DNA of 64,000 nucleotides from NCBI GenBank assembly GCA_029855935.1, contig JAGSHN010000016.1, positions 64,001-128,000 on the forward strand, in the 5' to 3' direction. The notes beneath the pieces were generated by a model. It saw only the letters and a program-made list of their open reading frames with translations. It had not been told where the DNA came from and made no database searches. A program made the position numbers and the translations under genes. This document shows positions 13,164-15,506 of this stretch, piece after piece (the first letter of the stretch is position 1; each line of letters begins with the position of its first letter). Source of the DNA: Candidatus Thorarchaeota archaeon. GTDB taxonomy: Archaea > Asgardarchaeota > Thorarchaeia > Thorarchaeales > Thorarchaeaceae.

Positions 13164-15506
13164 GTGGTGTCCCCGCGCATATTGATACAGCTCAGTGATG
13201 ATGTCAGCACGAGCGCAATCGCCGTAGGAGATGTCACCAGCTCTGGGCGGTCCGAGCTCTGTACGGGTGGCAGAGAGGGAGTGCTCAAGCTCTATGACGC
13301 CAACCAGAGCGAGGTTGCACTCTTGGCCCAGTCAGACCTTGGCGGCAGTATTCTATCAATCAGAATTGCGGATGCCAACAACGACGGCCAGATGGAGATT
13401 GTAGTAGCCAAGAGTCTCGCGCCGGGCGAGGAACCGGGCGTCGGGGGCACTCTTCAGGTCTACAGATACGCGCCCTCGGGCAGATTCGAGCTCTTGGCCC
13501 AGCATCCGATTGACAGATTCGTGACGACCCTTCAGGTCACGGATGTGACGGGTGACGGCAAGAATGAGATTCTCGCAGGAGGAAGCGACTCCACGTTGCG
13601 TATCCTCCGTATGACGCCTGACAATGAATTGACTGAAGTGGTCAATCACAGGCTGGAGGACATGCCGCTGACGATTGGCACCTGCGATGTCATTGGCGAC
13701 GAACATGAGGAGATTGTGATTGGGAATCGTGACAATACAATCCGAGTCCTCAAGTTCCAGAACGGCTCTGTGAAGGAGATAATGTGTCTTGATCTGCCAA
13801 GTCCTGTCATCTCCCTAGCATCGGGGGACCTTCTTGGTGACAGGAAGATGGAGCTCGGCGTTGTGACCCACGATGGCGCCATTCGCATCTATCGAAACGA
13901 GGAGAGTGAGCTTGAGCTATTCGCCAAGCTGGAGGGGGCGAATGCTCTCTCAATCCGCATCGCAGAGCTCAACGCGGACCATATGGATGAGATTGTGATT
14001 GCGACATCTGACTACAAGATCGAGTTCTATCATCTCTACATGGGTGAGCTGAAGCGGATTGCCTCAGTGGACATCGGAAAGAAGATACTGGCGCTGGCCG
14101 TCGGTGATGCTGGTGGCGATGACCGCAAAGAGGTGCTGGTGGGTATATCTAACGGTCCCCTCACGGTGATTCAGGGACTGTATGAGTTGATTCCGAAGTT
14201 CGAGGTAGTGCCCGCTGAGAATGGCGGGACTGGTCTGACTGGTCGGCTGAAGGTCATCAACGTGAGTGAGAGACCCGTATCGGGTGTCACCGGCAAGATA
14301 TACTGGTTCCCGAAGGAGATGATGGAGGTCAGTCCACAGCAGATCCGGATGGACCTCGGACCGCACGAGTCCAAGGTGGTCGAGATCAGGCTAATGCCCA
14401 AGGAACAGGGCACCATTGTAATTCGGCCCATTGTCCTGATGTGGACGGACGAGTCTGGTGATGTACGTCAGGTCACAACTCCTGAGACCGCCGTCCTTGT
14501 AGAGGAGGATGCGGTTGTCTCAGCACCAGCTGCCGAGCCGCCTGTTGTGGTCGAATCGGTTGAGGAGACGATTGCCTCGGAGTCGTCGACGGAGGAGCCG
14601 GCTGAGCTGCTCACCCCGACCGGTTTCACGCCCCTCACGGAGGACGAGAAGGCGGAGATTGAGGCCGAGGCGTCCGGAGTGGTCAGTGAAGACTCCCTCA
14701 AGGCTGCAGAGGCACTGCTTGACGAGCTCTTCGGTGAGGCCAGTGCAGAGGCAAAGGCTGCTCTCGAAGACGTCAAGTCTATGATGGAGGGAACTGGCGT
14801 TGGTGTCGATGCGGCTGTGACTGTCGAGGAGGGAGCCGCCCCGGCCGTTGAGGTGGAAGAGGTCACACCACCACCGTCTGCGGCAGTGGAGAGCGCACTG
14901 GTGACAGAGATAAAGAATCGCCAGCCGAAGCCGCCTCCCCCAAACGCGTCGCCCGACTCGTACAGTTATCTGTTCAAGGTTATGATCACCGGGGAGGGTG
15001 CGGTCGGAAAGACCACTCTTGTCAACAGGTATGTCACTGGCTCCTTCGAGCGAGACTACAAGACGACTATCGGCAGTCAGTTCGCCGTCAAATTGACCTA
15101 CATCTATCCACCTGAGTCTGAGTATGCTGTAGGGATCAAGATACAGGCCTGGGACGTGGCAGGTCAGGCACGTTTTGCAGCGGTCCGCAAGATGTACTAC
15201 AGTGGTGCCGCCGGAGTGATACTCGTCTATGATGTGACTCGACGTAGGTCCTTTACCGAGTTGGAGAAGTGGGTCAAGGAGGCTGATGAGTCCATAGGCG
15301 CAAGAGTGCCTATGGTGGTGGTCGGTAACAAGATTGACCTACCCGACAGAATGGTGTCTCCGGAGGAGGCGAAGAAATGGGCTGAAGACCACGGCTTTCT
15401 CTATATGGAGAGCAGCGCCAAGACGGGCGAGGGTGTGGCGGACATGTTCACGGTTCTTGCAGAGCTGATGTGGCGAGAGGCCACAAACAACACGGCGAAG
15501 AAGTGA
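13164..15506 (+). CDS. FG-GAP-type 7-bladed beta-propeller + Ig-like domain + acidic linker + Rab-like small GTPase fusion
   Basis: Seven D-x-x-G-D-G-x-x-E-I-type repeats; C-terminal GEGAVGKT, IGSQF, WDVAGQARF, YYSGA, LVYDVT, GNKID, SSAK. Confidence 0.9.
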   Translation: MVSPRILIQLSDDVSTSAIAVGDVTSSGRSELCTGGREGVLKLYDANQSEVALLAQSDLGGSILSIRIADANNDGQMEIVVAKSLAPGEEPGVGGTLQVYRYAPSGRFELLAQHPIDRFVTTLQVTDVTGDGKNEILAGGSDSTLRILRMTPDNELTEVVNHRLEDMPLTIGTCDVIGDEHEEIVIGNRDNTIRVLKFQNGSVKEIMCLDLPSPVISLASGDLLGDRKMELGVVTHDGAIRIYRNEESELELFAKLEGANALSIRIAELNADHMDEIVIATSDYKIEFYHLYMGELKRIASVDIGKKILALAVGDAGGDDRKEVLVGISNGPLTVIQGLYELIPKFEVVPAENGGTGLTGRLKVINVSERPVSGVTGKIYWFPKEMMEVSPQQIRMDLGPHESKVVEIRLMPKEQGTIVIRPIVLMWTDESGDVRQVTTPETAVLVEEDAVVSAPAAEPPVVVESVEETIASESSTEEPAELLTPTGFTPLTEDEKAEIEAEASGVVSEDSLKAAEALLDELFGEASAEAKAALEDVKSMMEGTGVGVDAAVTVEEGAAPAVEVEEVTPPPSAAVESALVTEIKNRQPKPPPPNASPDSYSYLFKVMITGEGAVGKTTLVNRYVTGSFERDYKTTIGSQFAVKLTYIYPPESEYAVGIKIQAWDVAGQARFAAVRKMYYSGAAGVILVYDVTRRRSFTELEKWVKEADESIGARVPMVVVGNKIDLPDRMVSPEEAKKWAEDHGFLYMESSAKTGEGVADMFTVLAELMWREATNNTAKK

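Follow-up and report, generated by a model that had tools for sequence, protein, structure and literature searches.

The 64,000-nucleotide stretch of Candidatus Thorarchaeota DNA considered here (the window; part of contig JAGSHN010000016.1) carries, at positions 13164–15506 of the forward strand, a single uninterrupted open reading frame (ORF) that translates to 780 residues plus stop and joins a Rab-like GTPase to a β-propeller. The domain order is confirmed as propeller, immunoglobulin (Ig)-like β-sandwich, acidic linker, and Rab-like GTPase, and the fusion protein is best explained as a cytoplasmic, lineage-specific multidomain small GTPase of the Thorarchaeia (Asgard archaea). An earlier note on this DNA, made from the sequence alone, described the protein as a BBSome-like propeller/Ig module fused to a GTPase. 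Its account of the parts holds: in the translation and in AlphaFold2 (AF2) models, the seven blade motifs, the β-sandwich, and the linker of approximately 150 residues with its ALLDELFG helix all lie where the note had placed them, and the GTPase has the five RabF-like motifs and no C-terminal prenylation cysteine, the last cysteine being residue 208. Residues called invariant below are so in an alignment of 24 homologues (A1), and the full-length AF2 model was likewise built from 24 homologues.

The whole gene (13164–15506, forward strand) begins with a GTG codon, and a Shine-Dalgarno-like stretch, GGAAGG, lies 8–14 nt upstream of it. On sequence evidence this GTG is the true start, because the N-termini of homologues (M.SP[KR]ILFEI.DD.STSAIAVGD) are matched by the window protein with (M)VSPRILIQLSDD and because the open frame continues just 6 codons upstream of position 13164. 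The entry for this protein in the public collection (P0002) has 741 residues and starts at Val40, cutting off the first-blade motif; judged by the family alignment and the short upstream frame, both of which support the GTG at 13164, that call is too short. The 780-residue protein has cysteines only at positions 33, 174, and 208, and no signal peptide or membrane helix was found in it (the best 19-residue window has a Kyte-Doolittle value of 1.34, below the membrane-helix level).

The N-terminal domain (residues 1–340; 13164–14183, forward strand) is recognized as a seven-bladed FG-GAP-type β-propeller from Pfam matches, the AF2 model, structure matches, and conservation. Seven blade motifs start at residues 22, 69, 126, 174, 221, 267, and 314, with a spacing of 46–57 residues, and every blade contains a loop of the D-x-x-x-D-G-x-x-E type. 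The AF2 model has 28 strands in residues 1–340, as expected for 7 blades of 4 strands, mostly with model confidence (pLDDT) of 80–95. Among Pfam models, FG-GAP_3 matches the fusion protein in 5 stretches, far beyond chance (E 5.6e-22, 78.6 bits); Beta-prop_BBS7 reaches 54.7 bits against a cut-off of 27, BBS2_Mid 53 bits, and Itfg2 (PF15907) 34.1 bits, again against a cut-off of 27. Blades 5 and 6 (residues 211–283) are almost invariant across the alignment, following the pattern LPSPVIS..GD.LGDRKMELGVVTHDG..R.YRNEE...NADHMDE.

The Ig-like β-sandwich that follows comprises approximately 115 residues (residues 341–455; 14184–14528, forward strand) and is defined by an AF2 domain model and structure searches. 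It occupies residues 342–455 of the full-length AF2 model, mostly at pLDDT 80–95, and modeled alone it reaches a pLDDT of 87.6. A conserved basic/aromatic patch is formed by GK(I/L)YWFPK (residues 377–384) and RPIVLMWTD (residues 421–429). The mean column identity of propeller and sandwich together is 74%.

The Rab-like GTPase domain (residues 605–768; 14976–15467, forward strand) matches the Pfam Ras family with E 2e-46 and is the most conserved part of the protein, with a mean column identity of 85%. Among PDB entries, Thor-Rab (7EZB) ranks first (E 3.7e-45), and the next 59 are all eukaryotic Rabs, Ypt, or Sec4. The nucleotide-binding motifs are intact: GEGAVGKT (610–617), T635, DVAGQ (664–668), NKID (722–725), and SAK (751–753); G1–G5, the catalytic Gln668, and T635 are invariant in the alignment. 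The RabF1–5-like motifs IGSQF, KIQAW, RFAAVR, YYSGA, and LVYDVT lie at residues 636–692 and are near the consensus that Pereira-Leal and Seabra reportedly defined in 2000. The Rab hydrophobic triad (F640/W663/Y678) is present and invariant in the family. Intact and conserved as they are, these motifs imply a working switch that would bind some partner via its Rab-like surfaces.

Like Thor-Rab (PDB 7EZB, 7EZD, and 7EZE), the fused GTPase combines a predicted Rab fold and RabF-like motifs with the lack of a prenylatable C-terminal cysteine. Thor-Rab and the stand-alone Asgard Rab-like GTPases are, however, single-domain proteins of about 180–200 residues, whereas the fused domain stands behind 600 residues of other domains and has an N-terminal extension and a β2–β3 insert of its own, the family-specific IYPPESEYAVG. 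Asgard Rabs without a C-terminal cysteine, as well as Asgard Rabs fused to longin and roadblock domains, have been described in a study in which propellers go unmentioned (Tran et al., 2024; PMC10933270). The genome that contains the window has 19 small-GTPase matches including the fused one, leaving about 18 others. The nearest stand-alone Rab-like paralogue has 196 residues and is 54% identical to the fused GTPase; it is encoded on the same contig, about 12 kb beyond the end of the window (G000:C28:139987-140502, reverse strand).

Between sandwich and GTPase lies an acidic Glu/Ala/Pro-rich linker that is predicted to be disordered (residues 456–604; 14529–14975, forward strand), as judged from the alignment, AF2, and composition: residues 446–600 contain 29 E, 26 A, 19 V, and 16 P and have a net charge of −29. 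Over its roughly 150 residues the linker varies in sequence and length among homologues except for three conserved islands. The first is TGFG, at about residue 501. The second is a predicted amphipathic helix (residues 508–524; 14685–14735, forward strand) with the consensus ESLKAAExLLDQLFG in the alignment; in the window protein ALLDELFG occupies residues 517–524, and A515, E516, L522, F523, and G524 are invariant in the 24 homologues. AF2 places a helix at residues 509–523 within the linker, with low confidence. The third island, ES.LVTEIR.R.PKPP.P...DSYSYLFK (residues 577–605), runs into strand 1 of the GTPase. The forms TGFG.[VI] and LFG[ED] were considered as γ-ear/GAE-binding motifs, but their fourth position is not conserved, and they are a lead and not a finding. 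Beyond the GTPase, the protein ends in a short basic tail that lacks cysteine (residues 769–780 plus stop; 15468–15506, forward strand; family consensus REARKA.EAKKK). Its sequence in the window protein is ...MWREATNNTAKK, and, with the last cysteine at residue 208, it has no C-terminal geranylgeranylation motif.

The fusion is a real and conserved gene. Searches recovered full-length homologues in more than 120 clusters, of 750–826 residues and 61–77% identity, nearly all labelled Thorarchaeota and including SMTZ-45 and the Baja genomes. When 400 genomes of the phylum were scanned, a high-scoring orthologue was found in 84 of the 85 genomes of the window's own family; the sister family, represented by a single genome, has an orthologue at 45% identity that is split across two contig ends and in which the P-loop is present. 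The flanking genes are conserved as well: to one side lie those for the ATPase and permease of an ABC transporter and to the other that for the indolepyruvate oxidoreductase β subunit, the same as in 11 other loci.

These data bear on a trivial explanation, that the gene is an assembly chimera or that a gene-calling error has linked an ordinary secreted FG-GAP/VCBS protein to a GTPase. The FG-GAP_3 repeats themselves speak for such an origin, as does the finding that, orthologues aside, the nearest sequences belong to giant multi-repeat FG-GAP proteins. Against it, the same stop-free frame recurs in dozens of assemblies made independently, closed or long contigs among them, the synteny is kept, the protein has no signal peptide or membrane segment, and its Pfam profile is unlike that of classical FG-GAP proteins. 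The explanation is almost certainly wrong: a chimera is refuted by the homologues in more than 120 clusters together with the orthologues throughout the family, and the fusion described in the earlier note is genuine, with the same flanking genes from genome to genome.

A divergent protein of the same architecture, P0123 (781 residues, recovered by an exhaustive HMMER search), is 43% identical to the window protein in its N-terminal part. Its GTPase is 67% identical to that of the window protein, compared with 54% for the nearest stand-alone paralogue, and because the former is the closer of the two, the sequences indicate that the fusion probably arose once, long ago, and then descended vertically. 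Outside the Thorarchaeales, the sampled Asgard relatives, which share the propeller at 21–31% identity, are all without a P-loop. A survey of the architecture across Asgard genomes, proposed in the earlier note, thus finds it in the window's own and sister families and finds relatives elsewhere that lack the GTPase signature; from the genomes sampled, the fusion appears to be confined to one Asgard order, which weighs against reading it as a BBSome precursor.

The affinity of the N-terminal half to eukaryotic scaffold proteins, which the earlier note had proposed, is borne out for the propeller. In a Foldseek search against the PDB, the top 11 matches are BBS2, BBS9, BBS7, BBS1, and ITFG2 (E 2.9e-19 to 4.5e-15), and integrin α follows from rank 12 on (E 2.6e-14). 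Re-alignment with VIA gives a Z of 35.0 for BBS2 (root-mean-square deviation 2.3 over 296 residues) and of 33.8 for ITFG2 (323 residues, 16% identity). A family profile run against all PDB sequences ranks ITFG2 first (E 1.7e-8), then BBS7 (1.3e-3) and BBS2 (0.01), and this search returned no integrin at E up to 1. Even the single sequence matches ITFG2 (E 0.0022), in an alignment that is collinear from the N-terminus (residues 5–152 with ITFG2 9–159).

A contrast in Pfam scores supports the same affinity. On the window protein and 12 other cytosolic-type propellers, mostly from Asgard genomes and including a paralogue from the window's own genome and P0158, Beta-prop_BBS7 scores 34–79 bits and FG-GAP_3 just 34–106 bits; on 12 classical multi-repeat FG-GAP/VCBS proteins, FG-GAP_3 scores 230–550 bits and Beta-prop_BBS7 gives no match or at most 37.6 bits. 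The classical proteins and integrin α do share with the window protein the FG-GAP_3 repeats and the Ca-loop-like D-x-x-x-D-G-x-x-E motifs, and in integrin α, too, the propeller is followed by an Ig-like domain. The classical proteins differ: they are secreted or lie on the surface, and they carry many propellers in tandem along with Dockerin, Big, RTX, or TcdB-type parts. The window protein does not belong among these extracellular FG-GAP/VCBS proteins, because it lacks a signal peptide and membrane segment, is fused to a cytosolic GTPase, and has a different Pfam score pattern.

For the sandwich the likeness to BBSome subunits is weaker. VIA ranks the GAE domain of BBS1 first among 48,161 representative chains (Z 11.3, root-mean-square deviation 2.6, 102 residues), followed by the ears of adaptin, GGA, and COPI at Z 8.5–9.2. 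Several unrelated Ig folds nevertheless come within 1 Z of the BBS1 GAE domain, and the C3 macroglobulin, lacto-N-biosidase, transglutaminase-barrel, and CARDB/DUF11 domains tie with the GAE domains, which weighs against ancestry. In an atlas search by shape, BBS9 GAE clusters reach a TM score of 0.72 and CARDB/DUF11 0.74, and the closest match is an Asgard DDRGK/UFL1/PCI cluster at 0.76. Foldseek, which the earlier note had suggested as a check, gives for the sandwich weak generic Ig-like matches (TRAP-β, MSP/VAP, and GAE), none of them prominent. No GAE family of Pfam matches the sandwich at E up to 10, a further point against BBS ancestry, and a Pfam search of the sandwich alone and the linker gives just sub-threshold matches (BatD, ASH, Transglut_C, and TRAPPC13_C).

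In BBS1, BBS2, BBS7, and BBS9 (PDB 6VBU, 6VOA, 6XT9, and 4V0M), an Ig-like sandwich of the GAE type comes after a seven-bladed propeller, and the order of propeller and GAE-like sandwich in the window protein is that of BBS1. The BBS-type layout claimed in the earlier note is correct to this extent and no further: the coiled-coil, platform, and C-terminal helical domains of BBS2, BBS7, and BBS9 are absent, a disordered linker and GTPase following the sandwich instead, and CARDB or macroglobulin Ig domains match equally well. Sequence identity to the BBS proteins is 10–16%. In the BBSome, ARL6, a small GTPase, binds the BBS1 propeller; that GTPase is a separate, Arf-like protein, whereas the one described here is Rab-like and covalently attached. 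To our knowledge, archaea do not have cilia. The closest solved protein by sequence is ITFG2 of KICSTOR (PDB 9V6E and 9O5A), a cytosolic FG-GAP-type propeller that differs in consisting of the propeller alone, lacking an Ig domain, a leash, and a built-in GTPase. ITFG2 pairs with KPTN and acts upstream of the Rag GTPases on lysosomes in KICSTOR, which also contains SZT2 and KICS2.

A stronger interpretation is that propeller and sandwich share true homology, as sister or precursor, with the BBS1/2/7/9 propeller-GAE unit and with ITFG2/KPTN; the fusion protein would then be a proto-coat or adaptor of archaea that has its recruiting GTPase built in. Its case draws on the ranking of BBSome subunits and ITFG2 as best solved matches by Foldseek, family profile, and VIA alike, on the BBS1 and BBS9 GAE matches of the sandwich and the BBS1-like domain order, on the ITFG2 alignment that is collinear from the very N-terminus, and on the Beta-prop_BBS7 contrast; a 2026 preprint also lists one Asgard-eukaryote structural cluster labelled BBS7/ITFG2 (10.64898/2026.10.28.762692). 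The margins are small, though. Ordinary WD40 propellers (Ciao1, RACK1, and COPI) reach Z 32–33 in VIA against 35.0 for BBS2, and other Ig domains tie with GAE. FG-GAP proteins that are clearly extracellular are also matched by the models BBS2_Mid (up to 129 bits) and Itfg2 (up to 77 bits), and among 1.8 billion representatives the sequences that rank next after the orthologues are those of giant FG-GAP repeat proteins from prokaryotes. In a language-model search, in which 0.9 is the level that counts, bacterial FG-GAP/VCBS clusters score 0.87 and BBS2 and BBS1 clusters 0.82–0.85, all under that level. No Pfam match to BBS2_C, the PTHB1 platform, or the hairpin was found on the 780-residue protein. 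No further BBSome component is known from this organism; the search made covered BBS5, for which the BBL5 model (PF07289) has no match in the window's own genome (97.3% complete), and this silence is uninformative, as a control was equally silent. With a GTPase that is Rab-like and not Arf-like, and a fusion seen in one order, homology in this strict sense is improbable in our judgment.

The likeness to BBSome and KICSTOR proteins is real but limited. We conclude that the N-terminal module belongs to a cytosolic FG-GAP-like propeller subclass that also contains the BBS1/2/7/9 and ITFG2 propellers; the Pfam contrast and the ITFG2 profile match make the affinity somewhat more specific than membership of a fold class, and ancestry is not settled. 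The further proposal of the earlier note, a coat-like scaffold that would inform the origin of coat-GTPase coupling, is not supported, given the margin of just 1–2 Z over WD40 propellers, the Rab-like GTPase, and the distribution in one order.

The propeller belongs to a wider family. Relatives occur in 270 of the 400 genomes of the phylum scan at E up to 1e-5, and in those examined the propeller is 21–31% identical and gives the same pattern of Pfam matches; they differ from the fusion protein in that the sampled ones have no P-loop and are stand-alone proteins of about 340–376 residues, proteins of about 560 residues, or other fusions. The window's own genome encodes a stand-alone paralogous propeller (G000:C8:99518-99937, reverse strand; locus L002, 916-1956) that has 338–346 residues, is 31% identical to blades 3–5, and exceeds the Beta-prop_BBS7 cut-off; frames of 338–358 residues corresponding to it occur in many genomes of the same family. 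By analogy to ITFG2-KPTN or BBS2-BBS7, the fusion protein may have this paralogue as a partner. Larger propeller proteins, of about 560 residues, are present in 123 of the 135 genomes of another Asgard family (for example, L015 702-2375, reverse strand; L023 1178-2857, forward strand; and L024 1386-3077, forward strand). Their best Pfam match is Beta-prop_BBS7 (78.8 bits for L015), their C-terminal 220 or so residues are unannotated, and this group may be what lies behind the BBS7/ITFG2 cluster of the 2026 preprint.

Other members are fused to different partners: one (L019 1-2988, reverse strand) to DDRGK and an E3-UFM1-ligase-like PCI domain, and another (L020 1-3198, reverse strand) to PCI and a Ser/Thr protein kinase. 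From these fusions, a cytosolic scaffold that can be reused seems to be at hand in the propeller, sometimes with the sandwich and sometimes without it, joined to different regulatory outputs, a reading that fits the domain shuffling of Asgard signature proteins, most multidomain examples of which are lineage-restricted and produced by such shuffling (Liu et al., bioRxiv 10.1101/2020.10.19.343400). A frame of 2268 residues (G000:C28:54878-55495; L003), some 9 kb upstream of the window start, contains a propeller stretch that is 29% identical to residues 117–335 of the fusion protein.

How the two halves work together can be proposed tentatively, at a little under even confidence: a Rab-type switch on a disordered acidic leash of about 150 residues would be tethered to the propeller-sandwich platform, which would be gated by its nucleotide-dependent docking. 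In one nucleotide state the switch/interswitch surface of the GTPase would engage, in cis or in trans, this rigid protein-binding platform at blades 5–6 or at the sandwich, or else the linker helix ESLKAAExLLDQLFG; docking would then make the platform accessible or inaccessible to partner proteins, or would join molecules into assemblies. As a conjecture, weak electrostatic membrane contact through the basic, cysteine-less tail might take the place of prenylation. By analogy to ARL6-BBS1 or a Rab and its effector, the protein could be viewed as a GTPase-effector pair that fusion has made permanent. Domain shuffling of the kind typical for Asgard signature proteins would have produced this fusion in a single event at the root of the order. 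A variable linker with short invariant islands is what would be expected for docking motifs on a leash.

Several points limit this proposal. Model confidence in the full-length AF2 prediction is low for the linker and, surprisingly, for the GTPase as well, and the model is silent on docking; a complex prediction for residues 1–450 with the GTPase domain, GTP, and Mg, made with family alignments, scored 0.00, gave no verdict, and counts neither for nor against docking. Contact between the GTPase and the other parts is something we infer. No GAP (GTPase-activating protein), GEF (guanine nucleotide exchange factor), roadblock, or longin gene adjoins the fusion gene, whose neighbors are metabolic, and the sequencing runs that contain this DNA consist of one hydrothermal vent metagenome (DNA), probably the source sample, with no RNA run listed.

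It is also conceivable, if rather unlikely, that the halves do not dock with each other at all: the propeller-Ig part would bind a ligand, substrate, or partner, the GTPase, acting as in Roco-type or dimerization-activated multidomain GTPases, would set the location or dimerization of the whole protein, and the leash would do no more than tether the two. The long and poorly conserved linker, with its net charge of −29, permits independent movement of this kind; related propellers fused to kinase or UFL1-like outputs are what a generic binding module would give, and the conserved stand-alone paralogous propeller in the same genomes could be the real partner. Yet an invariant helix in the linker and a strongly conserved effector surface on the Rab-like domain both require a specific partner, and the tethered domains are the candidates at highest local concentration.

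Membrane traffic in eukaryotes is built from propeller-based scaffolds and small GTPases, which raises the question of how the two came to be coupled. Both are present here in one strongly conserved archaeal polypeptide with the effector surface of the GTPase intact, which makes the coupling testable with one recombinant protein. A much bolder view, and one we hold to be a long shot, is that the Asgard family of cytosolic propellers plus GAE-like sandwich, with the Thorarchaeial fusion as one of its offshoots, was the stock of the eukaryotic BBS1/2/7/9 and ITFG2/KPTN scaffolds, and that the fusion preserves a scaffold-GTPase partnership later run in trans, as in ARL6-BBSome and KICSTOR-Rag; were the homology true, it would be informative on how coat-GTPase coupling arose. 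Even as a Thorarchaeial invention, the protein adds an architecture to the repertoire of Asgard GTPases and points to the wider Asgard family of cytosolic propellers that score closer to BBS7/ITFG2 than classical FG-GAP proteins do. No description of a propeller-sandwich-Rab-like GTPase architecture was found in the searchable literature, in which the BBS7/ITFG2 cluster line of the 2026 preprint comes nearest.

Three further features of the neighborhood may be recorded. The 966-bp gap between the ABC transporter ATPase gene and the fusion gene contains a 171-residue hydrophobic ORF on the reverse strand (12338–12853) with no Pfam family; the corresponding gap in L004, the single syntenic locus measured, is about 170 bp, and tblastn found a counterpart of the ORF in none of the 11 other loci. 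Either this ORF was inserted locally or it does not represent a gene. On the other side of the fusion gene, two ORFs at 20322–22288 (reverse strand) have no match to any family, and a DHH-family protein is encoded at 18236–19351 (forward strand) that has a weak, below-threshold match (19.3 bits) to GAP1-C, the C-terminal domain of GTPase-associated protein 1.

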